NCBI GenBank assembly: GCA_964583985.1
Contig: CAZOYD010000080.1
Coordinates: forward strand, 3,224 to 14,606
Reading direction: 5' to 3'
Length of the DNA stretch: 11,383 nt
Origin: an uncultured archaeon
GTDB lineage: Archaea; Asgardarchaeota; Lokiarchaeia; Sigyniarchaeales; SOKP01
The position numbers were made by a program, and so were the translations under genes. Shown in pieces: positions 322-11,383 of the stretch. Position 1 is the stretch's first letter. Each line of letters begins with the position of its first letter. The notes below the pieces were generated by a model that was not told the origin of the DNA, did not search any database, and was given only the letters and a program-made list of their open reading frames with translations.

Positions 322-729
322 TTAGAATTTAAAATCTTTTTGGTATTCTCGATATCCTAATTTTAAAAGCTTTAAACTTGACTTGTTTAATTTATTATCC
401 ACCTCAATTTCAGAGCGTGGATTATGCATCATATCATGATAAAGAGCATAATATTCATCTGCGGATGGATTATCCCGAATTAAATCAAGAATGGCTTTTT
501 CTGTGAAGTAGAGGATTAAATCAGGTTTGAAATCGGGGTCTTTTTTGGTCATTTCTAAGGTTTTTTCATCTTTTTTGAATAAATAATAATGTAATTTAGC
601 ATGTTCTTCATGTGTAGATTCTTCAGTAATAAAATATTCCCAACAAGCGTTAATACTGAGATGCCTCATCAAATCAAAGTTCTTTGAAAAATAACCTTTT
701 AATTTCTCATATAATTCTTTAGTTTCCAT
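322..729 (-). CDS. Hypothetical protein, divergent SCP2 (sterol carrier protein 2)-like; paralogue of 2293..2760
   Basis: 135-aa ORF, 20 nt downstream of the ALDH on the same strand. The segment KPDLILYFTEKAILDLI resembles the SCP2 'pDltl.....f..l' strand-helix. It aligns by eye with the 155-aa ORF. Confidence 0.7.
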   Translation of the reverse strand: METKELYEKLKGYFSKNFDLMRHLSINACWEYFITEESTHEEHAKLHYYLFKKDEKTLEMTKKDPDFKPDLILYFTEKAILDLIRDNPSADEYYALYHDMMHNPRSEIEVDNKLNKSSLKLLKLGYREYQKDFKF

Positions 730-749
730 GTTTATAAAATGGTATTAGG

Positions 750-2243
750 TTATTTGATATTCTCGAGATTTGTCGGAGTTCCATCATAAATATACTTCGG
801 ATATACCAATTCTTGGGGGTAATATTTGCATCCAGAAGGATAAGCTGAATCCTTTATTCCCCCTAGGGCGACAGTGATATCAGTAAGCATGGGTTTAGCA
901 TTAATATATATATTCGCTGCTTCTAAATCTCTCTTGAAAATTTCGATGTTATTCAAATTAGAAGTGTAAACTACTGCTCTCATACCATAATTACTTGCAT
1001 TTGCTAATTTAATTGCATCTTTCATATCTTTGGCTTTAGTAATAGAACGGACAGGTCCAAAAGCTTCCTCCCTCCATAAAAACGGAGCCTTAGATAAATC
1101 TTCGCACAATTCTGGTTTAATTTCAACCAGAGTTGGCGTATAAAATAAACCGTGGTCTTCTCCGGTATCAATTTTTTCACCACCTGTATATATTTTAACG
1201 CCATAATCTTTAGCGTCTGCTAGCATCACGTCCATCATCATCAAGATTCTCCTGCTTCCCAGAGGACCGATATCAACGGTGGGATCTGTGGGATCACCAT
1301 ATTTTAATTTCTCAATTTCTTTTATTAGACACTCCACATAATCATCATAAACATCCTGGTGCACGATAATCCTCTTCATACTAAAACACTGCTGTCCACT
1401 GTTGGTATATGAGGCTATGGCATTCCACTTTGCTATTTTCTCTAAATTAACATCATCCATTACTATTCCCCCGTCATTTCCCGCGCATTCAAAGAAGAAT
1501 TGTTTGAAAGGTTGAGTGTACATTGCGACTCCCATTGATTTATCCGCCGTTTTTTTCAACATTTGTCCATACCTCACGAGAATATCTTTTGCTGTATGGG
1601 AAGAAGTAACCGTCATGATAATCTTGATTAGCTGAGATCTTAGAAATTCATCTACAGCCCATTCTCCAGGAGCTATGACCAAATCTAATGCATCTAAACC
1701 TGGTAGTCCCATTTCTTGCATAGTCGAATAGGCTTCTAACATCGTTAAAGGACATGCAGTAGATGGTTTAACAATCGCACCATTTCCTACCAAATAATTG
1801 GCACCCATCTGATACAAGGGAAGGCTAATGGGCGTGTTACGTGGAGAAATGCAAGCAGACAAACCATGTGGAATGTATTTGATTACCACATTTTTCTCTC
1901 CTTCAATGCCAGTCAATGGTCTGTCTTCTATAAATTGATAATACCAATCGCAAAATCGGAAACCTGTTAATACAATGTTTAATTCCCATTCCGAGTACTT
2001 GATCGGCAATCCTCCTTCTGCAACAACCAGATCCTTTAATTGGGATTTTTTAAAGCGCATTTTGCTCGAATATTTGGAAAGATGTTGAGCGCGTTCAAAG
2101 AAATCCATTTTATTGAGTTCTTGTTGTGCTTTATGAATTTTTTTTATTTTATCTTTAAGAGACTGAGGTGTGTCTGCTGGAATGGTATCAATAACTTCTC
2201 CATTATATTTATTCTTTATTTCTAATTCAGATGATTTTGACAT
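750..2243 (-). CDS. Aldehyde dehydrogenase superfamily protein (lactaldehyde-DH/GAPN-like, atypical motifs)
   Basis: Numbering from the GTG at 2252: oxyanion Asn139 (SPRNTP), VKPS, general-base Glu255 (ECAGND), catalytic Cys289 (SGQQCFS; canonical 34-residue E-C spacing), GDP..P.VDIGPL, EEAFGPV, ANASNYGM, LGGIKDS. The ATG at 2243, preceded by SD-like AAGGTG, is a better start than the GTG at 2252. Confidence 0.92.
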   Translation of the reverse strand: MSKSSELEIKNKYNGEVIDTIPADTPQSLKDKIKKIHKAQQELNKMDFFERAQHLSKYSSKMRFKKSQLKDLVVAEGGLPIKYSEWELNIVLTGFRFCDWYYQFIEDRPLTGIEGEKNVVIKYIPHGLSACISPRNTPISLPLYQMGANYLVGNGAIVKPSTACPLTMLEAYSTMQEMGLPGLDALDLVIAPGEWAVDEFLRSQLIKIIMTVTSSHTAKDILVRYGQMLKKTADKSMGVAMYTQPFKQFFFECAGNDGGIVMDDVNLEKIAKWNAIASYTNSGQQCFSMKRIIVHQDVYDDYVECLIKEIEKLKYGDPTDPTVDIGPLGSRRILMMMDVMLADAKDYGVKIYTGGEKIDTGEDHGLFYTPTLVEIKPELCEDLSKAPFLWREEAFGPVRSITKAKDMKDAIKLANASNYGMRAVVYTSNLNNIEIFKRDLEAANIYINAKPMLTDITVALGGIKDSAYPSGCKYYPQELVYPKYIYDGTPTNLENIK

Positions 2244-2292
2244 TTTAAACACCTTTTTATAGAATTATTATTATAATTTTGATGAAATATAT

Positions 2293-2760
2293 TTATGTGT
2301 TATAATCACCCAAAATTCCGGCGGTTTGAGCAAAAGCCCCATAACCCATATCTATTAAAATTTGGGTTCTCCTAAAAAGCATTATGTCAATCCAACCATT
2401 CGTTTCGTCTGGCTCATTAAAAAAAGAGCCTAAAAGTTGAACATATTCTTCTTTATCTTTAGTTTTAATCAATTTTTCAACAGCATCCACCGATAAGGCT
2501 AATTCTAAATCTGCATCATTGGCATTCCCCGGCTTTATTTCGATACCATTTCCATTACAAAGAACATTGAAGCTGTCTATGGGGGATTTATTATCATACG
2601 ATTCAAGTGAATTATAAATTGCAAAGTCAAAGATCGAGCCTTTAACCAAATCAGAAAAAATCTCGGGATATTGGGAGAGAAAAAATGTATACTTTTTCAC
2701 AATTTCTGTTTTGAAATCTTTCTTATCAACAATATGACTTGTTAAATTCTCTTTTAACAT
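2293..2760 (-). CDS. Hypothetical protein, divergent SCP2-like; paralogue of 322..729
   Basis: 155-aa ORF with AGGA upstream of the ATG, 11 nt after the upstream SDR stop. The segment NGIEIKPGNANDADLELALSVDAVEKLI matches the SCP2 pattern 'g...v..G....aDl.l.ls.d....l'. Confidence 0.72.
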   Translation of the reverse strand: MLKENLTSHIVDKKDFKTEIVKKYTFFLSQYPEIFSDLVKGSIFDFAIYNSLESYDNKSPIDSFNVLCNGNGIEIKPGNANDADLELALSVDAVEKLIKTKDKEEYVQLLGSFFNEPDETNGWIDIMLFRRTQILIDMGYGAFAQTAGILGDYNT

Positions 2761-2771
2761 GATCCTATTTC

Positions 2772-3770
2772 TTACTCCTTTTTTTTTCCTATTGTTTCAA
2801 ATTCCTTATACCATCTGATAGTTTCTTCTAATGCGTTTCTTAATGGCGTAATCTTATAACCTAACTTATCAATTGCTTTCTTAGAGGAATAGGCTCGATG
2901 ATATTTAATTGCTTTCAATGTAGATCTTGTTATATAGGGAGGTTTTTTAGTAAAAAAAGCTCCTAATTCCAATAACCACGCATAGGAACTCACAATCCAG
3001 AAAGGAAATTTTCTTACTTTCTTTCCTCTACTAATTTCAGCAATTAAGTTTAAATACTCAATAAATTTGACATTTTCTCCGCCTAAAAGAAAATCTTCTC
3101 CATAAAGATCTTTTCTTTCAAATGAATGTGCTAAAACATTTGACAAATCTTTGACATAAGATAAACACGTCATTGATTCTCCCTTACCGGGGCACGCTCC
3201 CATTAATTTTCCTCTCATCACGTCATAAAGCATTCTTCCAAAAATATTAAAATCTCCCGGTCCAAATACGATTCCAGGGTAATACATTTGTACTTTTAGT
3301 CCTTTTGGAATTAATTCTTTAATCAATTTTCTTGCCTGGTATTTAGATTTCTCATATTCCATGTAAAATTGGGGATTATCATGAGTTTCATCAACAGGTT
3401 CGGGCGGTGTGGGACCTAATGCCGTAAAAGAGCTAACATATAGAAGAGGAATACCTTTTTCAAGAGAAACCATTGCGACGTTCTCAGTTCCCTTAACATT
3501 GATATCATAATAAATTGTTTTCTTTCTGGCCCAAATTCCCGTATATGCTGCGAGATGATATATAAATTCTTTGCCTTCAGCTGCAATTCTGATGCTTTCA
3601 ATATTTTGGACATCTCCATTAATATATTTAATCTCAGATAATTCTTTAAATGGGGATACGTTACTATTTTCTCGTTTCAACAGCGTGATTTCATGTCCTA
3701 AATCATATAACTCTTTTACTAAGGGGATACCTATGAATCCAGTACCACCTGTTACTAATATTTTAGCCAT
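2772..3770 (-). CDS. Extended SDR, NAD(P)-dependent epimerase/dehydratase family (HpnA / dihydroflavonol reductase / 3beta-HSD-like)
   Basis: Motifs TGGTGFIG, HLAA, NVKGTENV, YVSS, catalytic YEKSK and PGIVFGPGD. It has a C-terminal hydrophobic segment FPFWIVSSYAWLLELGAFF as in membrane-associated HpnA/3beta-HSD-like enzymes. Confidence 0.9.
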   Translation of the reverse strand: MAKILVTGGTGFIGIPLVKELYDLGHEITLLKRENSNVSPFKELSEIKYINGDVQNIESIRIAAEGKEFIYHLAAYTGIWARKKTIYYDINVKGTENVAMVSLEKGIPLLYVSSFTALGPTPPEPVDETHDNPQFYMEYEKSKYQARKLIKELIPKGLKVQMYYPGIVFGPGDFNIFGRMLYDVMRGKLMGACPGKGESMTCLSYVKDLSNVLAHSFERKDLYGEDFLLGGENVKFIEYLNLIAEISRGKKVRKFPFWIVSSYAWLLELGAFFTKKPPYITRSTLKAIKYHRAYSSKKAIDKLGYKITPLRNALEETIRWYKEFETIGKKKE

Positions 3771-3953: not shown

Positions 3954-4508
3954 ATGAAGGAAAATAAATATTATGAATTCCAAGCACAGCTTTCACTCCC
4001 ATTTTTATCTACTTCAACAGAAGCATTATTTCAAATATTTAAAACGTTGGAAAATCAGTTTGGTTTAATAAAAGGTTCATCACAAAAATTCATTGATCTT
4101 GGAGCAGGAAATGGTGTTGTAGTTATATTTTCAGCACTGAACTATAGCATATCATCTCTCGGGATAGAGATTAATAATGTTTTGATTAATGAAATAAAAG
4201 ATCATATTAAAATTTTAAAAGAATCAAAAAAATACTCATCTAGAATCCTCCACAAAATAGTTATAAAAAAAGAAGATCTTTTTCAGCAAGATCTAAGCAA
4301 TTTCGATTATGTTTATCTTTTCTCGTTACCAACAATGCAAAAATACCTAAAACACGTATTTCTCACCGCGAAGGAAGGTTCAATTTTTATATCATACAAA
4401 TATCCTTTAGAAGGATTTGAGTCTATTCTCAAATTGGAGCATGTTCTTGATATTAAATTAAAAAAAGATTTAGTTAAGACTTATTTTTATGTGAAATTGA
4501 ATTCCTGA
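3954..4508 (+). CDS. Class I SAM-dependent methyltransferase, aKMT/FAM173/Dot1-like (probable protein lysine methyltransferase)
   Basis: LPFLST pre-motif, motif I FIDLGAGNG, post-I LGIEIN, EDLFQQDLSNFDYVYLF, then M..L and G..FISYKYPL. This layout matches short archaeal aKMT/FAM173-type enzymes. Confidence 0.82.
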   Translation: MKENKYYEFQAQLSLPFLSTSTEALFQIFKTLENQFGLIKGSSQKFIDLGAGNGVVVIFSALNYSISSLGIEINNVLINEIKDHIKILKESKKYSSRILHKIVIKKEDLFQQDLSNFDYVYLFSLPTMQKYLKHVFLTAKEGSIFISYKYPLEGFESILKLEHVLDIKLKKDLVKTYFYVKLNS

Positions 4509-5026: not shown

Positions 5027-6148
5027 TTATAAGCAATTATTATACACTGCTTTTTCTAACCCAGTAAGTATAGTTTTAGAGCCAATGGTTTTATATATTT
5101 CATCTAAATCTCTACGATGTACTAATTTTTTTTCCCGTGCAGATAAGTACGATAATAATACGTCGTAAATGGCTTCTTTTGCTTGTTCGGGAGTGAATTC
5201 AGGTTCTTTATCATTAATAATGCAACTAGTAAAGTGATCATCTTCTATCCTTGCTGATATTTCATAATAAGTCGGAAATGTCCCGTGCTCTAGTTCTGGT
5301 TCGTACCATTTTCCTCGATTATCTTCCATTTTTTTATGTTTGGAAAAAATTTTTACCGGTTTAATCCATTCATGATTTTCAATGATGGAACCCATAGTTC
5401 CATATATTTCAAGACTATTAGTGGGAGGTGATACGACGGAAAAACTAACGATTGTTTCTGCAATCGCCCCTTTTTTATACTGAAGTTGAACCATTGCATT
5501 ATCTTCAGCTTTCTCGGGCAAATTCGTGCATTGTTTAGTTAACCAAGCATTAGATGATTCAACATTATCATTTAGTATCCAATTCATGGTTGCAAACTTA
5601 TGAGCTCCCATATCCATTAGAGCTCCACCTCCTGCTTTTACTGGATGTCCCTTCCAAAATCCTTCTTTCATTAACCCGGGTATCTCATTCACTCCTTCAT
5701 AGGAACGAACTAAAAATACATCCCCAATTAATCCTGACTGGGTTGCTTCCATCACGTATTTGTGAGCAGGTAAAAATCGATGATTTTCAGCAATCATAAA
5801 CTTGACTCCCGCTTTTTTAGTTGCATTAATCATCAGATCACATCCTTCAAGCGTGGTAGCCATGGGTTTTTCACATAATACGTGCTTTCCGGCTTCTGCT
5901 GCTGCGATGACCATTTCTTCATGCAAAAAATGAGGGACCATAACAATAACGGCGTCAATATCACTCTTTAGAAATGCATTAATATTAGAATAATATTGCA
6001 TTTTAAAAATCCTTGCAGCTCTTTTCGCAGCAGTTTCATTAATATCATATACTGATTTGAATTTTATTTTTGGATTATGCTTGCTCCCAGCACTATGAAA
6101 TGCCCAAGCTCCACCACAGCCAATAATGCCATATTTCACATAATTCAT
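5027..6148 (-). CDS. Gfo/Idh/MocA family NAD(P)-dependent oxidoreductase
   Basis: Motifs GIIGCG (Rossmann start), DAVIVMVPHFLH, GKHVLCEKPMA, ENHRF, GGGALMDMGAH, AEDNA and LEIYGTMG. Confidence 0.93.
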   Translation of the reverse strand: MNYVKYGIIGCGGAWAFHSAGSKHNPKIKFKSVYDINETAAKRAARIFKMQYYSNINAFLKSDIDAVIVMVPHFLHEEMVIAAAEAGKHVLCEKPMATTLEGCDLMINATKKAGVKFMIAENHRFLPAHKYVMEATQSGLIGDVFLVRSYEGVNEIPGLMKEGFWKGHPVKAGGGALMDMGAHKFATMNWILNDNVESSNAWLTKQCTNLPEKAEDNAMVQLQYKKGAIAETIVSFSVVSPPTNSLEIYGTMGSIIENHEWIKPVKIFSKHKKMEDNRGKWYEPELEHGTFPTYYEISARIEDDHFTSCIINDKEPEFTPEQAKEAIYDVLLSYLSAREKKLVHRRDLDEIYKTIGSKTILTGLEKAVYNNCL

Positions 6149-6265
6149 AGTTTAATAATTGATCAAACGCTTAAATAGATTCTTCAATAAACGGCAGTAC
6201 AAGATCATAAATTTAATGCTAAACTAATATTTTAAAAAACTAAATATTAAAATGTGAAAAATTAA
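6149..6265. promoter_or_regulatory. Divergent promoter region shared by the Gfo/Idh/MocA gene and the M24-SDR operon
   Basis: 117-nt AT-rich gap between head-to-head ATGs. TATTTAAG on the minus strand (6177-6170) lies ~25 nt upstream of ATG 6148, consistent with a leaderless transcript. Confidence 0.4.
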
Positions 6266-7405
6266 ATGGTTGAACCGATAGGATACAATAAAAAGAAAGC
6301 TAGTGAAGTATTAGATAAAAATGGAATCGATTTATTAATTGCATCTACCCCGGTGAATGTTTTTTACACTACTGGTTTACCAGTAACTCATGTTGCTCCT
6401 AACCCTATTTTATATGTTTTATCAAATCAATACCCTAACCTCTCCGTAATTAGAAGGGATGGAGAAGAAAGTGCTATTATTTGGTCATTATATGACAGCG
6501 TTGAAGAGTTTTCTTGGGTTCCTCCAAGTGAAGTATATCGAATTGGATCCCTCGATGCTGCTGTAAAGATGCTGTTAAAAATAGTAAAAGATTGGGAATT
6601 AAATGATAAAACAATAGGTTTGGAATCCTACATGCCTAGATACCAATCAGAAGCGCTTCAGAAGACATTTCCTAATGCTAAGTTTGTAGATGGGGATAAG
6701 GTATTTATAGAAATGCGATTAATTAAAACCGAAGAAGAAATACGGCGCATTAAAAAATCCACAGAAGTAGCTGAAAAAGCAATTAAAACTTGTATTGATA
6801 ATGTCAAACTCGGCATGCTTGATACTGAACTCTTACAAATAGCGAGAAGAACAATAATAGATGAAGGAGCTTGGGGATGGGATCATTTAACAATGAATAT
6901 AGGACCGTCTGATCCTGAAGCACCAGGTTTGGGAACTCCAGTCACACCAAATGATATTGTTAGATTTGATTTTGGGGCGGTTTGGGAAGGTTATATCTCG
7001 GATGTTAGTAGAGGAGTAGTTATTGGTGAAATTCCCAGAAAAGCTCAAGAAGCAATGGATTACATGATACAAGTACAAGAATATTGTGCTAATGGCATCA
7101 AACCAGGAGTAAATGCAACAGAATTTCGAGAAGAAGCTCGAAACTATTTGAAATCTTTAACTAGTAGAGGATTTTATCTCATAACAGCACATAGTATCGG
7201 CTTAGAATGCGAAGAAATCCATCTATTTGGTCCAACTGGAGCTTTAGGAATTCCTTTCGAGGAAAACATGGTATTAGATCTTGAAGTTTGGCTGAATGTT
7301 CGAGGTCAAGGTCTTGTAGGTGTAGAAGATTGTTATAGAGTCACCGCTTCGGGTTGTGAGCGACTCTCAAAGTTAGATAAAAGTATAATTATAAAAAGCA
7401 GGTAA
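6266..7405 (+). CDS. M24 (Xaa-Pro peptidase/creatinase-fold) binuclear metalloenzyme, probably with non-canonical substrate
   Basis: Creatinase_N-like N-domain (P.NVFYTTG) and linker MRLIKTEEEIRRIKKS. All five metal ligands are present: D235, D246, H309, E340, E354. Confidence 0.9.
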   Translation: MVEPIGYNKKKASEVLDKNGIDLLIASTPVNVFYTTGLPVTHVAPNPILYVLSNQYPNLSVIRRDGEESAIIWSLYDSVEEFSWVPPSEVYRIGSLDAAVKMLLKIVKDWELNDKTIGLESYMPRYQSEALQKTFPNAKFVDGDKVFIEMRLIKTEEEIRRIKKSTEVAEKAIKTCIDNVKLGMLDTELLQIARRTIIDEGAWGWDHLTMNIGPSDPEAPGLGTPVTPNDIVRFDFGAVWEGYISDVSRGVVIGEIPRKAQEAMDYMIQVQEYCANGIKPGVNATEFREEARNYLKSLTSRGFYLITAHSIGLECEEIHLFGPTGALGIPFEENMVLDLEVWLNVRGQGLVGVEDCYRVTASGCERLSKLDKSIIIKSR

Positions 7406-7412
7406 AAATTTG

Positions 7413-8189
7413 ATGAGATTAAAAGATAAAGTAGTAGTACTTACAGGTGCTGCTTCCGGTATTGGAAAGGCAACAGCGGAATTGTTTGCAAAAGAAGGTG
7501 CAATTCTAATAATTTCAGATATTGATGAGATTGGACTAAAAAAGACCTTTGATTCCTTAGGAGATGCAAAAAATAAATCATTCATGATGAAAGTTGATGT
7601 GAGAAATCCCTCGGAAGTAAAAGCAATGATTGAGAAAGCAATTGAATTGCATGGTAAAATTGACGTTCTCATTGTAAATGCAGGAGTTGTTAGAGTGGGG
7701 CCAGTTGATACGTTTCCAGATGAGGATTATGACTTATTAATTAATGTAAACTTAAAAGGAACCCATTATACGTGTAAATATGCCGTTCCTTACTTCAAAA
7801 AACAAAAAGTTGGCTCTATCATCACGCTTGCATCGGTAGCTGCACATATCGGGCAAACAGCTCATGCAAATTATTGTTCAACAAAAGCTGGTGTATTAGG
7901 ATACACAAGAGCTCTAGCGTTAGATATGGCACCATTCAATGTTCGAGTAAATAGTGTTTCTCCTGGAGCTACGGATACGCCCATGCTACAGGGCGATGTG
8001 GCTAAACAAGCAAGAGATCGAGGCTTATCTTATGAAGTAGTTAGAAAGGAATTTGAAGAGGAGGGAGTTATGGGAAGATGGGCCAAACCTGAAGAAATTG
8101 CAACTGGAATATTATTTTTGGCTACTGAAGAATCCTCTTATATGACAGGCGCAGATCTAAGATTAGATGGTGGTTGGACGACTAGATAA
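7413..8189 (+). CDS. Classical short-chain dehydrogenase/reductase (likely NAD-dependent)
   Basis: TGAASGIG, Asp after beta2 (SDID), NAG, ASV, catalytic YCSTK, VNSVSPG.TDTPM and DGG. It starts at ATG 7413 (or TTG 7410), a few nt after the M24 stop, so it is likely co-transcribed. Confidence 0.93.
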   Translation: MRLKDKVVVLTGAASGIGKATAELFAKEGAILIISDIDEIGLKKTFDSLGDAKNKSFMMKVDVRNPSEVKAMIEKAIELHGKIDVLIVNAGVVRVGPVDTFPDEDYDLLINVNLKGTHYTCKYAVPYFKKQKVGSIITLASVAAHIGQTAHANYCSTKAGVLGYTRALALDMAPFNVRVNSVSPGATDTPMLQGDVAKQARDRGLSYEVVRKEFEEEGVMGRWAKPEEIATGILFLATEESSYMTGADLRLDGGWTTR

Positions 8190-8240: not shown

Positions 8241-8990
8241 TTACATTGTCATTCCGCCGTCCACGAGTAAACTTACTCCGGTGCAGAACTCATTTAATAC
8301 CAAAAATAGGACACCTTCTGCGATTTCTTCTGGAGTGCCAAGACGTTTTAAAGGTTGACGATCTATATATACTTGCCTAATTTCGTTATAATTCCCCCCC
8401 TTGCTTTTAATTCGTTTTGCTAGTGAAGGTGAATCAGTAGTTCCCGGACATATCGCATTAACTCTAACTTTATCTTCCAAATAGTCCGTTGCCATAGCTC
8501 TAGTCATAGATAACACGGCCCCTTTAGAAGCCGTGTAAGCAACTCTATCTTTTACACCTTTAAATGCAACTGAAGAAGAATTATTTATAATCACCCCATG
8601 AGATTTTCTTATATAGGGGATTGCATATTTCGTCACTAAGTAAATACTACGGATGTTGACAGCCATAGTTCTATCCCAGTCTTCTGTAGAAATTGTATCG
8701 ATAGCTCCACCAAGCACAACTCCAGCATTATTGAACAAAATATCTATTTTACCATAAGTTTCTATGGTTTTTTCAATTATTCGCTTCGCTTCCTCTTCTA
8801 TTGAAACATCGGCTTGAACAAATATTGCATCTCCTCCAGATGATTTAATTCTCGAAGTAGTATTTTTTGCAGACGTAGATAATGAATTACAACACACTTT
8901 TGCACCCTCCTTTGCAAATAGAAGAGCAGTTGCTTCACCAATTCCAGCTCCAGCTCCCGTTACAATGGCAATTTTTCCTTTTAACTTCAT
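8241..8990 (-). CDS. Classical SDR, BDH2/DHRS6 / 2-keto-3-deoxy-L-fuconate dehydrogenase-like
   Basis: TGAGAGIG, NNAG and catalytic YTASK. Subfamily-like segments KGVKDRVAY and RVNAICPGTTDSPSLAKRI, then RQPLKRLGTPEEIA and DGGM. Confidence 0.88.
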   Translation of the reverse strand: MKLKGKIAIVTGAGAGIGEATALLFAKEGAKVCCNSLSTSAKNTTSRIKSSGGDAIFVQADVSIEEEAKRIIEKTIETYGKIDILFNNAGVVLGGAIDTISTEDWDRTMAVNIRSIYLVTKYAIPYIRKSHGVIINNSSSVAFKGVKDRVAYTASKGAVLSMTRAMATDYLEDKVRVNAICPGTTDSPSLAKRIKSKGGNYNEIRQVYIDRQPLKRLGTPEEIAEGVLFLVLNEFCTGVSLLVDGGMTM

Positions 8991-9116: not shown

Positions 9117-11054
9117 ATGAAATTAAGAATTAAAAATAACCAGATTATTGATGATGATGGGCGAATAATATTACTGAGAGGAGTAAATTTGGGAGGAAGT
9201 TCAAAAGTTCCCTTTACTCCTAATGGTGCAACCCATATTAAAACCGATTTTTCAGATCATAGAGATGTTTCATTTGTGGGTCGACCATTTCCTCTAAAAG
9301 ATGCGAATGAACATTTTTCACGATTAAAACATTGGGGTTTTAATTGTCTTAGATTCATAATAACGTGGGAGGCTATAGAACATGGTGGACCAAAAGAATA
9401 TGATAAAGAATATTTGGATTATATTGAAGAAATTCTAAAAATTGCTAAAGAATTTGGATTTTTCATAATTATAGATCCTCATCAAGATGTCTGGAGTAGA
9501 ATTACAGGAGGAGATGGAGCCCCTGGATGGACATTTGAAAAAGTGGGGTTGGATTATACCAAATTTGAAAGTTCAGAAGCATCCTTTGTAATGCAACTTA
9601 GATATGACCCTGATAACCTTGTAAAATACCCTCCGATGCATTGGATGGGGAATAAATATAGATTTGCGAACGGAACGATGTGGACTTTATTTTTTGGAGG
9701 GAATGATTTTGCACCTTCTTGTATAATTGATGGAAAAAACGCTCAAGATTATTTCCAGAATCATTTCTTTGATGCTATGAAAAAAATCGCATTTAGGTTA
9801 AAAGATAATTCAAATGTGTTAGGTTTTGATATATTAAATGAACCTCCTGAAGGATGGATTGGTAAATATGTTGATGGAAGTGAATGGGAAGGAAAATCTG
9901 AAGTATTGGGTCATGTCTTTACCCCTATTGATGCCATGTTATCTGGAGCAGGATATCCTAGGAATATTGGATACCAAGAAGTTAAACGGTTTGGCATTAA
10001 AGAAACGAGAAAAGATGAGTTAAATCGAGGTAAAATATCATGCTGGATGGAAGAAGTTGAAGATATCTGGAAAAACGAGGGCATATGGGGATTAGATGAG
10101 CTTGGAAATCCAAAGATTTTGAAAAACGAGTATTTTATCTATAAAAATGGAGAAAAAGTGGATTTCTACCGAGATTATTTTTCTCCTTTCCTCAAAGCTT
10201 ATTCTGAAGCTCTCCGAATAGAATTTCCAAGTGCAATGATATTTCTTACAGGACCCATGGAAAGCGTCATGAAAGGAGAGAGATTTGAATTGGAAATTCC
10301 ACCTAATAGCGTACATGCCGCGCATTGGTACGATGTTGCTACAACTGGTACAAAAAAGGCAATGCTTAAAGCTAATTATAATATAATTACTGGAAATCCA
10401 GTTATTGGCAAAAATAATGTGCGACAAATGTTCATTTCGCAATTAAAGAATATCCAAGAATATTCTAACTCTATCTTTAATGGCATTCCTACCATAATTG
10501 AGGAATTTGGATTACCATTTGATTTAAATAATAAAGAAGCTTATGAAAAACTAAAAACCGAGCCTGAAGAAGCGTGGAAAACGCACATTAAAGCATTAAA
10601 TAATTATTATAATGCGATTGATGCGAATTTATTACATGCATTGCAATGGAATTACACTCCCGATAATATAAACGAATGGGGAGATTTATGGAATTTAGAA
10701 GATTTATCAATATATAGCATCAACCAAAGAGTTAATCCCGAGGATATTAATAGTGGAGGAAGAGCAATTAAGGGATTTTGTCGTCCACACTTCATTTATT
10801 GTACTGGCATTCCAAAAAAAATGGAGTTTCAAATGAAGGAAGGAATTTTTTATTTTGAGTTTGATGGTGATCCTTCAATAAAAGGATCAACAATTCTTTT
10901 CATTCCAAAAATACATTATCCCAATGGTTATAATATTGTATTATCTGAGGGAGAAATACAAAAAGATGAAAAAAATCAATTAATAGCGATTAATATCAAA
11001 AAAGATGGAATCCATACCGTAAAAATAACAAAAATAATTAATATGCCCCAATAA
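9117..11054 (+). CDS. Glycoside hydrolase family 5, endoglycoceramidase-related (EGCrP / GH5_12-like) with C-terminal beta-sandwich; no signal peptide
   Basis: Motifs GRIILLRGVNLGGSSKVP, VSFVGRPFPL, WGFNCLRFIITWEAIEHGGP..YD.EYLDY, DPHQDVWSR.TGGDGAPGWT, TMWTLFFGGNDFAP, acid/base NEP (E242), HWYD, nucleophile EFG (E463), WNYTPDN...WGDLWNLEDLSIYS and GGRA...F.RP. Confidence 0.92.
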   Translation: MKLRIKNNQIIDDDGRIILLRGVNLGGSSKVPFTPNGATHIKTDFSDHRDVSFVGRPFPLKDANEHFSRLKHWGFNCLRFIITWEAIEHGGPKEYDKEYLDYIEEILKIAKEFGFFIIIDPHQDVWSRITGGDGAPGWTFEKVGLDYTKFESSEASFVMQLRYDPDNLVKYPPMHWMGNKYRFANGTMWTLFFGGNDFAPSCIIDGKNAQDYFQNHFFDAMKKIAFRLKDNSNVLGFDILNEPPEGWIGKYVDGSEWEGKSEVLGHVFTPIDAMLSGAGYPRNIGYQEVKRFGIKETRKDELNRGKISCWMEEVEDIWKNEGIWGLDELGNPKILKNEYFIYKNGEKVDFYRDYFSPFLKAYSEALRIEFPSAMIFLTGPMESVMKGERFELEIPPNSVHAAHWYDVATTGTKKAMLKANYNIITGNPVIGKNNVRQMFISQLKNIQEYSNSIFNGIPTIIEEFGLPFDLNNKEAYEKLKTEPEEAWKTHIKALNNYYNAIDANLLHALQWNYTPDNINEWGDLWNLEDLSIYSINQRVNPEDINSGGRAIKGFCRPHFIYCTGIPKKMEFQMKEGIFYFEFDGDPSIKGSTILFIPKIHYPNGYNIVLSEGEIQKDEKNQLIAINIKKDGIHTVKITKIINMPQ

Positions 11055-11066
11055 TTAAGATATCCT

Positions 11067-11383
11067 TTAATCCCAATTTAGATGAGAATAATTCAATTGT
11101 GTTACTTCTCCAAGTCCGTCTAAAATACTTTTTGTTCCTTCTTTTTTGTATACTTTCATTAATTCATCCATTGAAGTCATTCTCCCATTTTTAGCAGATA
11201 GATATGCCAAGAGAACTACCGCAACACCTTGTCTTGCCTCTTCTGGTGTAAAATCTGGTTTCTTATCTTCTAAAATGCATTGTGCAAAATATGCGTCTTC
11301 ATGACCCATTGAGATTTTATAATAATCAGGAAATGGTCCGTGCTCAATAATTGGACTATAATATGCTCCCTTTACTTCAGCAT
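11067..11383 (-). CDS. 3' end (partial) of a second Gfo/Idh/MocA oxidoreductase, paralogue of 5027..6148
   Basis: The frame stays open to the window edge: AEVKGAYYSPIIEHGPFPDYYKISMGHEDAYFAQCILEDKKPDFTPEEAR... It aligns with GKWYEPELEHGTFPTYYEISARIEDDHFTSCIINDKEPEFTPEQAK... The ATG at 11309 is internal. Confidence 0.9.
   Translation of the reverse strand, partial: AEVKGAYYSPIIEHGPFPDYYKISMGHEDAYFAQCILEDKKPDFTPEEARQGVAVVLLAYLSAKNGRMTSMDELMKVYKKEGTKSILDGLGEVTQLNYSHLNWD

Follow-up and report, generated by a model that had tools for sequence, protein, structure and literature searches.

Closest described systems

The closest described relatives of the protein considered here are M24B enzymes of the pita-bread fold, namely the prolidases and Xaa-Pro aminopeptidases (1pv9, 1wy2 and Escherichia coli PepP), DddP, which acts on dimethylsulfoniopropionate (DMSP), and the small-molecule enzymes DoeA/EutD and creatinase. 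We analysed an 11,383-nucleotide stretch of DNA from an uncultured archaeon of the Lokiarchaeia (assembly GCA_964583985.1, contig CAZOYD010000080.1, positions 3,224 to 14,606), hereafter the window, in which a gene at 6266..7405 (+) encodes an M24B protein next to genes for a Gfo/Idh/MocA NAD(P) dehydrogenase and a short-chain dehydrogenase/reductase (SDR). The open reading frame (ORF) gives a stop-free translation of 379 aa, in which Pfam recognises the two-domain M24B architecture, with Creatinase_N at about residues 10-153 (PF01321, 44.3 bits, cut-off 22) and Peptidase_M24 at 161-361 (PF00557, 93.8 bits, cut-off 23). An AlphaFold2 (AF2) model of the protein (predicted local distance difference test, pLDDT, 88.6; predicted template modelling score, pTM, 0.86) matched prolidases, aminopeptidase P, DoeA, creatinase and DddP in a Foldseek search of the PDB, which returned generic M24B folds only, without an informative functional neighbour. 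A search of the ESM Atlas returned only the protein's own family.

Prolidases are the best matches by sequence (E 4e-27) and by Foldseek (E ~1e-27), and share with the M24 protein Creatinase_N, the pita-bread domain and the five metal ligands; however, in the genome it is partnered by a dehydrogenase instead of genes for peptide uptake or proteolysis. DddP binds the carboxylate of DMSP at a binuclear site, where Asp377, six residues past the ligand His371, is the proposed base (PMC4108388). The M24 protein shares with DddP the pita-bread fold and a binuclear site, and may resemble it in a non-peptide chemistry and in an acidic residue shortly past the ligand histidine (Asp377 in DddP, Glu316 here), whereas DddP has six ligands including an extra Asp, another substrate and another genomic context, and its model NF043017 gives the M24 protein 35.7 bits against a cut-off of 600. 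DoeA/EutD and creatinase have the same two-domain fold, hydrolyse C-N bonds of small non-peptides and match the model with TM-scores of ~0.76-0.78 (6yo9, 6twk, 1kp0). Nevertheless, the DoeA models are far from reached (TIGR02993, 45 bits vs 613; NF038259, 77.7 vs 575), and no ectoine or creatine genes lie near the M24 gene. Creatinase functions without metal ligands, whereas those of the M24 protein are intact.

At the level of the pathway, deoxyribose catabolism in Pseudomonas simiae employs a dehydrogenase, a lactonase, an SDR and a BKACE (beta-keto acid cleavage enzyme), with major facilitator superfamily (MFS) transporters in the lactonase-SDR-BKACE operon (PMC6365646). The order of enzyme types and the clustering of SDR, BKACE and MFS are alike in the islands described below, where the M24 gene stands beside the SDR in the place of the lactonase. 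The P. simiae route differs in that its dehydrogenase is a molybdenum enzyme, its lactonase is not assigned to M24 in PMC6365646, and it is without SCP2, PIG-L, 2-keto-3-deoxygluconate (KDG) kinase and 2-keto-3-deoxy-6-phosphogluconate (KDPG) aldolase. We read this parallel as one of pathway logic, not of homology. A Gfo-family dehydrogenase is also paired with a metal-dependent keto-sugar partner in DgpA with DgpBC, in the levoglucosan dehydrogenase LGDH with LgdB, and in GH109; to our knowledge, these partners are TIM barrels like xylose isomerase, or the dehydrogenase protein itself performs the keto-sugar step, and an M24 enzyme is never involved.

Active-site residues of the M24 protein

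Residue equivalences were drawn from a MAFFT alignment with E. coli K-12 PepP (from NC_000913.3, mature numbering) and 133 other sequences, and they rest on sequence alignment together with the fold-level Foldseek matches. The original prediction held that all metal ligands are kept, that glutamates replace two substrate-binding histidines, and that the usual EP motif reads EV; each of these points stands. The five ligands, whose codons span 6968..7327 (+), align with those of PepP as follows: D235 (6968-6970) with D260, D246 (7001-7003) with D271, H309 (7190-7192) with H354, E340 (7283-7285) with E383 and E354 (7325-7327) with E406. The same alignment places Glu218 (6917..6919 (+), motif SDPE) at PepP His243 and Glu316 (7211..7213 (+), motif GLECEE) at His361. 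Moreover, Leu305 (7178..7180 (+)) falls at His350, a third lost histidine in addition to the two of the original prediction. Alignment by phmmer with the Pyrococcus prolidases 1wy2 and 1pv9 concurs with the PepP alignment, pairing PSDPEAPG with LPHG, GLECEEIH with GLEVHEWP, LEVW with IEPG, and LITAH with NHSLGH, such that the HExP of prolidases reads EEIH in the M24 protein and EP reads EV.

E218, E316 and all five ligands are invariant in the 21 aligned Asgard homologues (21/21; 61-89% identity), and a motif count gave SDPE together with H..G...E[ED] for 119 of the 120 near-length homologue clusters and for 66 of the 69 fused ones. The close homologues all come from Asgard archaea, namely Promethearchaeota/Lokiarchaeia and Hermod-, Hod-, Odin-, Thor- and Heimdallarchaeota. 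Further residues invariant in this close clade are W205-D206-H207, S215-D216-P217, E314-C315, E317, H319 and D355-C356-Y357, and together the invariant residues would give a strikingly acidic, Trp-lined pocket. A distant subclade retains His207, Glu317, an acidic residue at 355 and Tyr or Phe at 357. His207 (6884..6886 (+), WDH motif) is invariant and adjoins the alignment column that holds Tyr229 in PepP; it is thus a candidate for lining the active site and might compensate for the lost histidines.

Residues 42-55 of the M24 protein (P0001; window ~6389-6430), the segment HVAPNPILYVLSNQ, are nearly invariant in the family and form the sole internal stretch with an AF2 pLDDT below 50. This segment may be a lid, or an interface with a partner subunit, the dehydrogenase or SCP2.

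A clade apart from the prolidases

None of the three PepP histidines (His243, His350 and His361) associated with Xaa-Pro peptidases is found in the M24 protein, and no peptidase equivalog model is reached: the scores are 79.7 bits against 630 for dipep_PepQ_Arch, 65.8 against 393 for PRK09795 and 25.7 against 465 for PRK10879. Moreover, no NCBIfam family scored above its cut-off for the M24 protein or for ten diverse members of its clade.

We placed the M24 protein in a tree of 133 sequences comprising the nearest 50%-identity representatives, PepP and the two other M24 proteins of the same genome (FastTree with midpoint root, a quick method). All 19 representatives with Glu at both histidine positions (E/E) fell into a single clade of 23 with an SH-like (Shimodaira-Hasegawa-like) support of 94 and inner nodes at 99, and the M24 protein with its intact ligands lies inside this clade; the other four members carry a single Glu at these positions, or show an alignment gap. 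PepP and the canonical His/His proteins lie outside the E/E clade, including the genome's own canonical M24 (L011, C12:16610-17398), which is His/His with the ligand set DDHEE. The second M24 protein of this genome (L010, G000:C6:39712-40113) has degenerate ligand positions (I, E, H, E, S) and, judging from its alignment, resembles metal-free creatinase-like proteins in its ligand loss.

The prediction that the enzyme is not a prolidase gains from the replacement of all three non-ligand active-site histidines, from a best peptidase equivalog score of about 80 bits against cut-offs of 393-630, and from the presence of a separate canonical M24 (L011) in the genome. We therefore consider it very probable that the enzyme is not an Xaa-Pro peptidase.

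Both histidines are kept in only 19 of the 135 nearest M24B representatives, among which the pairs N/Y, N/H and D/Y are common, and the M24B space nearest the family appears to hold functional diversity well beyond its annotation. Large groups near the family (representatives P0122-P0270) carry N/Y, D/Y or x/E pairs, and other unannotated functional variants therefore probably exist.

Fusion and linkage with a Gfo/Idh/MocA dehydrogenase

An exhaustive HMMER search over 1.84 billion representatives recovered fusion proteins such as P0122 (756 aa) and P0125 (898 aa), which match the M24 protein over their C-terminal halves with 46% and 43% identity, respectively. Pfam identifies GFO_IDH_MocA, Creatinase_N and Peptidase_M24 in both, with a complete Gfo/Idh/MocA dehydrogenase in the N-terminal part, and P0125 bears an extra N-terminal domain with SCP2 homology (E 2e-16). 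All 69 of the 69 clusters of longer homologues with E <= 1e-20 are Gfo-M24 fusions; 41 of them are ~755 aa long and 26 reach >=900 aa, many of the latter with an SCP2 Pfam hit. Roughly two dozen fusions are counted as SCP2-bearing, called by a Pfam hit or a length >=900 aa. The fusions originate from Chloroflexi/Dehalococcoidia, Treponema (including the isolate TIM-1), Anaeromyxobacter and Lachnospiraceae.

In the window, the dehydrogenase gene gfoA (5027..6148 (-); Pfam, curated models and PDB relatives) is the divergent partner of the M24 gene, from which it is separated by an AT-rich intergenic spacer of 117 bp (6149..6265, defined by sequence). The window's GfoA shares 54% identity with the Gfo half of the fusion, and the fusion therefore joins orthologues of the window's two divergent genes. 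Downstream, SDR1 (7410..8189 (+)) starts 4-7 bp past the M24 stop and is probably co-transcribed with M24; its nearest relatives are 3-hydroxybutyrate dehydrogenases and (3R)-hydroxyacyl dehydrogenases. The PDB relatives of GfoA include the C-glycoside 3-dehydrogenase DgpA, which ranks among the best of them, and 1,5-anhydrofructose reductase.

There is strong support for the M24 protein being a dedicated partner of a Gfo/Idh/MocA NAD(P) dehydrogenase, encoded divergently here and on one polypeptide in many bacteria. The coupling to a Gfo/Idh/MocA enzyme and an SDR, which had been proposed from the window alone, is seen both in the Gfo-M24 and SCP2-Gfo-M24 fusions and in a synteny that is kept among Asgard archaea and in several phyla of bacteria, with identities as low as 25%.

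A conserved catabolic island

We compared 80 genome loci, whose ORFs were labelled by BLAST against a panel of annotated neighbours; the locus counts are lower bounds, because many contigs are short. A Gfo gene is adjacent or fused in 64 of the 80 loci, and an SDR lies directly downstream in 42 of the 71 loci having room; both arrangements hold for the window, with GfoA divergent and SDR1 downstream. Within 10 kb, SDR genes were found in 69 of the 80 loci, BKACE in 54, SCP2 in 36, a NIPA-like drug/metabolite transporter (DMT) in 33, a PfkB kinase in 32, PIG-L in 25 and GH5 in 23. The trio of M24, Gfo and SDR stands within a conserved catabolic island, where a PIG-L deacetylase and glycosidases of GH5 or GH20 are frequent further members.

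Two paralogous types of M24 occur, and certain contigs hold both. Type A, the window's, is arranged GfoA< M24> SDR1>, while type B, ~60% identical to type A, is found in the arrangement DMT-PIG-L-SCP2-M24-Gfo. In Bacteriovoracaceae and Desulfomonilia, a single co-directional operon comprises KDPG aldolase, PfkB, DMT, BKACE, SDR, Gfo, SCP2, M24 and SDR. Dehalococcoidia and Zymogenaceae have a compact form, with PfkB, aldolase, SCP2-Gfo-M24, BKACE, SDR, extended SDR, MFS and sometimes a GntR/FCD regulator. The distant subclade, which is 25-29% identical to the window's protein and comes from soil and freshwater-sediment metagenomes, shows the order extended-SDR< SDR< BKACE< Gfo> M24> Gfo> SCP2> MFS> PIG-L>, with PfkB and aldolase nearby. 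The association of M24 with the island is ancient.

The island enzymes outline catabolism of a sugar-acid type, with BKACE and the pair of KDG kinase and KDPG aldolase as its end points. With 323 bits, the aldolase exceeds the cut-off of 275 of the KHG/KDPG aldolase model, the PfkB kinase is KDG-kinase-like, and the BKACE of the window's own genome keeps the HxH and ED motifs (metal, acid) of Kce. Occasional extras are GH20, GH4, a sulfatase, an Asp/Glu racemase, a radical SAM enzyme and an AGE-like protein. An IolD-like thiamine diphosphate (ThDP) enzyme occurs only in two distant Asgard loci, which also have an FAH hydrolase, an IlvD/Edd dehydratase and Amidohydro_2.

On the Atabeyarchaeia chromosome CP147780 (L091:8752-11131), a tandem pair of E/E-clade M24 genes is followed by SDR, BKACE and an FAH-family hydrolase. 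Its surroundings include an IlvD/Edd dehydratase, Amidohydro_2 and another Gfo, and upstream lies a ThDP enzyme. In certain Lokiarchaeial islands, a URO-D-like protein of ~380 aa is encoded between BKACE and PfkB (e.g., L017:13543-14691 (-)).

Possible reactions of the M24 enzyme

Taken together, it is highly likely that the protein is not a peptidase but works together with the dehydrogenase in the catabolism of (amino)sugars. We predict a cytoplasmic enzyme with a binuclear metal site, belonging to a monophyletic M24B clade that we name Gfo-linked or E/E. The candidates named in the original prediction, an amidase, lactonase or lyase acting on a sugar, cyclitol or cationic substrate, all still stand, and we would now rank hydrolysis of a C1-oxidised sugar first, a lyase or dehydratase reaction second and an amidase acting on an N-acyl amino-aldonate third.

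On balance, we lean slightly towards the first of these as the overall explanation, i.e., an E/E enzyme that hydrolyses a C1-oxidised sugar delivered by its Gfo partner. The dehydrogenase would oxidise an imported sugar, amino sugar or amphiphilic glycoside, and a metal-bound hydroxide of the M24 enzyme would attack the resulting carbonyl compound. Most likely, the C1-oxidised product would be a sugar lactone hydrolysed by M24, although this lactone-hydrolase step, taken by itself, is put forward tentatively and is rather doubtful. In the case of a 2-amino sugar, such as a hexosamine deacetylated by PIG-L, the alpha-amino lactone would be an ester analogue of an aminopeptidase substrate. The sugar acid would then enter the branch of SDR and BKACE, that of KDG kinase and KDPG aldolase, or both. 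Glu218, Glu316, D206, D216, E314, E317 and D355 would bind hydroxyl or ammonium groups instead of a peptide backbone.

For a lactonase speak the match of the gene set to the P. simiae deoxyribose route, in which a lactonase holds the position of the M24 gene, and the fact that hydrolysis is the native chemistry of the fold. Dehydrogenase-lactonase fusions also occur elsewhere, for example G6PD-6PGL. The lower part of the route has a parallel in oxidative chitin use, where D-glucosaminate is converted to KDG, followed by KDG kinase and aldolase (PMC9537276).

Several points nevertheless weigh against hydrolysis of a C1-oxidised sugar. The function of the E/E clade is predicted from sequence, a structure model and genomic context. 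A lactonase leaves the SCP2 domain unexplained, and the compact operons are without an aldonate dehydratase or deaminase that would provide KDG. Separate Amidohydro_2-type lactonases lie near second Gfo genes in certain loci. Sugar lactones often hydrolyse spontaneously, and the very high conservation and the fusion may therefore mean a harder chemistry. Moreover, BKACE needs a 2-deoxy-3-keto acid, and the source of the 2-deoxy group is not evident; a Glu beside a gem-diolate intermediate brings no obvious gain for hydrolysis; and either of the two enzymes, Gfo or M24, might act first.

The absence of a known dehydratase or deaminase from compact operons that do hold KDG kinase and KDPG aldolase counts in favour of a lyase or dehydratase, which we regard as unlikely but deserving of attention. 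Here, Gfo would produce a keto-sugar (for example an inosose, or the 3-keto form of a hydrophobic or 2-amino glycoside) or an aldonate, from which M24 would beta-eliminate. The metal pair would hold the carbonyl or carboxylate, Glu316 would take the adjacent proton, an aglycone, water or ammonia would leave, and SDR would reduce the product; a version acting as aldonate or glucosaminate dehydratase would give KDG directly for the kinase and aldolase. DddP offers a precedent within the fold, and Glu316 lies seven residues past H309, much as DddP Asp377 lies six past His371, but this likeness is one of spacing after the ligand histidine. SCP2, the GPH-type MFS transporters and the glycolipid-type GH5 suggest glycosides with a hydrophobic aglycone, while the products of PIG-L, glucosamine (GlcN) glycosides, resist ordinary glycosidases and their ammonium could be bound by the acidic residues. 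DgpA and 1,5-anhydrofructose reductase among the PDB relatives of Gfo point the same way, and the hosts seen all appear to be anaerobes, which would fit a redox-neutral sequence of oxidation, elimination and reduction. However, sugars are not known as substrates of any M24 enzyme, the 3-keto-glycoside lyases and inosose dehydratases described so far are TIM barrels of the xylose-isomerase-like type, and a lyase leaves BKACE equally unexplained.

Amide hydrolysis is the ancestral chemistry of the fold, and the island GH20 and PIG-L genes point to hexosamine conjugates. Both would suit an amidase, a reading that we find distinctly unlikely, in which the enzyme would act on an N-acyl amino sugar or N-acyl amino-aldonate that, after oxidation by Gfo, resembles an N-acyl-D-amino acid. 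Cleavage would be prolidase-like, before the C-terminal residue; glucosaminate would proceed to KDG and the acyl group would be freed, and if this were a 3-hydroxyacyl group carried by SCP2, it would then go to SDR and BKACE. Roles would in this way be given to the SCP2 fusion, to the (3R)-hydroxyacyl-dehydrogenase-like SDR1 and to BKACE. As a precedent, Pseudoalteromonas deacetylates N-acetylglucosaminate (GlcNAc1A) by a D-aminoacylase-type enzyme, with the product converted to KDG (PMC9537276). Against this, PIG-L is already a deacetylase, the operons are without a glucosaminate deaminase, it is speculative that DMT or MFS carriers would import N-(3-hydroxyacyl) sugars, and type-A loci, the window included, are without adjacent PIG-L or SCP2.

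That the enzyme is still a peptidase (a dipeptidase or aminopeptidase of unusual specificity), its linkage to sugar genes being incidental, is very improbable: Pfam, the best sequence and fold matches and the public annotation as Xaa-Pro aminopeptidase or M24 metallopeptidase speak for it, but all three substrate-contacting histidines are gone, the dehydrogenase is fused in at least 69 clusters, synteny is kept to 25% identity, L011 serves as a separate canonical M24 and the scores lie far under every peptidase equivalog cut-off. A Thermotoga-type inositol route (two dehydrogenases, a diketone hydrolase, then KDG) was also considered as an idea. None of the three readings, hydrolase, lyase or amidase, covers every part, as SCP2 and the 2-deoxy-3-keto acid for BKACE stay unaccounted for.

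Other features of the window and of the source genome

Beyond SDR1, the window carries SDR2 of a glucose-1-dehydrogenase-like subfamily (8241..8990 (-); Pfam and curated models), which in relatives is the first gene of an SDR2-BKACE-PfkB operon, and a GH5 + GH5_C glycosidase, endoglycoceramidase-like and a recurrent member of the island (9117..11054 (+); Pfam and curated models). At its end lies the C-terminal part of a second Gfo/Idh/MocA gene of GfoC type (11067..11383 (-)), which is cut by the contig end and is 65% identical to the GfoC of L006; in relatives, this gene is followed by type-B M24, SCP2, PIG-L and a DMT transporter.

On the other side of gfoA, a small methyltransferase is encoded at 3954-4508 (+), preceded by a block on the minus strand that comprises a small ORF with no family hit (322-729 (-)), an aldehyde dehydrogenase (ALDH; 750-2252 (-)), a second small ORF with no family hit (2293-2760 (-)) and an HpnA/3beta-HSD-like extended SDR (2772-3770 (-)). 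This block (window 322-3770 (-)) recurs beside GfoA-M24 in at least seven Asgard loci (L006, L014, L017, L023, L024, L027 and L033), and the extended SDR is a component of the bacterial fusion operons as well. Neither BLAST nor Pfam revealed a similarity to SCP2 in the two small ORFs (155 aa and 135 aa). Just upstream of the window (contig C80, L102:572-3238 (+)), an 888-aa protein has a Peptidase_C25 (gingipain-like) and a propeptide domain.

The window lies on a 14.6-kb contig and ends inside the second Gfo gene. The other half of the island was found on a 6.2-kb contig (C118, L101:1-6241) in the order PfkB, BKACE, a 296-aa DMT-like protein, PIG-L, SCP2 and contig end; its PfkB is 65% identical to the Thorarchaeota one and its BKACE 68%. 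This contig ends where relatives hold the type-B M24, none of which was found in the source assembly, and comparison with L006 and L008 suggests that the gap between the two contigs probably contains the rest of GfoC and the type-B M24.

Significance

Our literature search found no paper describing this M24 family or cluster, and the NetSyn BKACE preprint makes no mention of the cluster. What is new is the clade, its signature, the fusions and the pathway context; the fold and the idea of a non-peptidase M24 are known.

It is possible, though still speculative, that the E/E clade represents a new carbohydrate-active use of the pita-bread fold, as a metal-dependent 3-keto-glycoside lyase, a lyase of (amino)aldonates or a hydrolase of amino-sugar lactones, which with Gfo and the SCP2 carrier would form a two- or three-part machine opening an undescribed anaerobic pathway. 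Such a pathway would serve amphiphilic or amino-sugar glycosides, feed the branches of BKACE (acetyl-CoA-dependent cleavage) and KDG kinase/KDPG aldolase, and be common to Asgard archaea, Dehalococcoidia, Treponema and others.

In public databases, hundreds of proteins of the clade bear the annotation "Xaa-Pro aminopeptidase" or "M24 metallopeptidase", and are therefore counted as peptide catabolism in reconstructions of Asgard archaea and of sediment and gut anaerobes. The evidence places the clade in sugar or glycoconjugate catabolism rather than in peptide catabolism. The family has a clear active-site signature and natural fusions, and the fusion is available from a cultured organism, Treponema sp. 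TIM-1, which makes an uncharacterised pathway spanning two domains of life directly testable.

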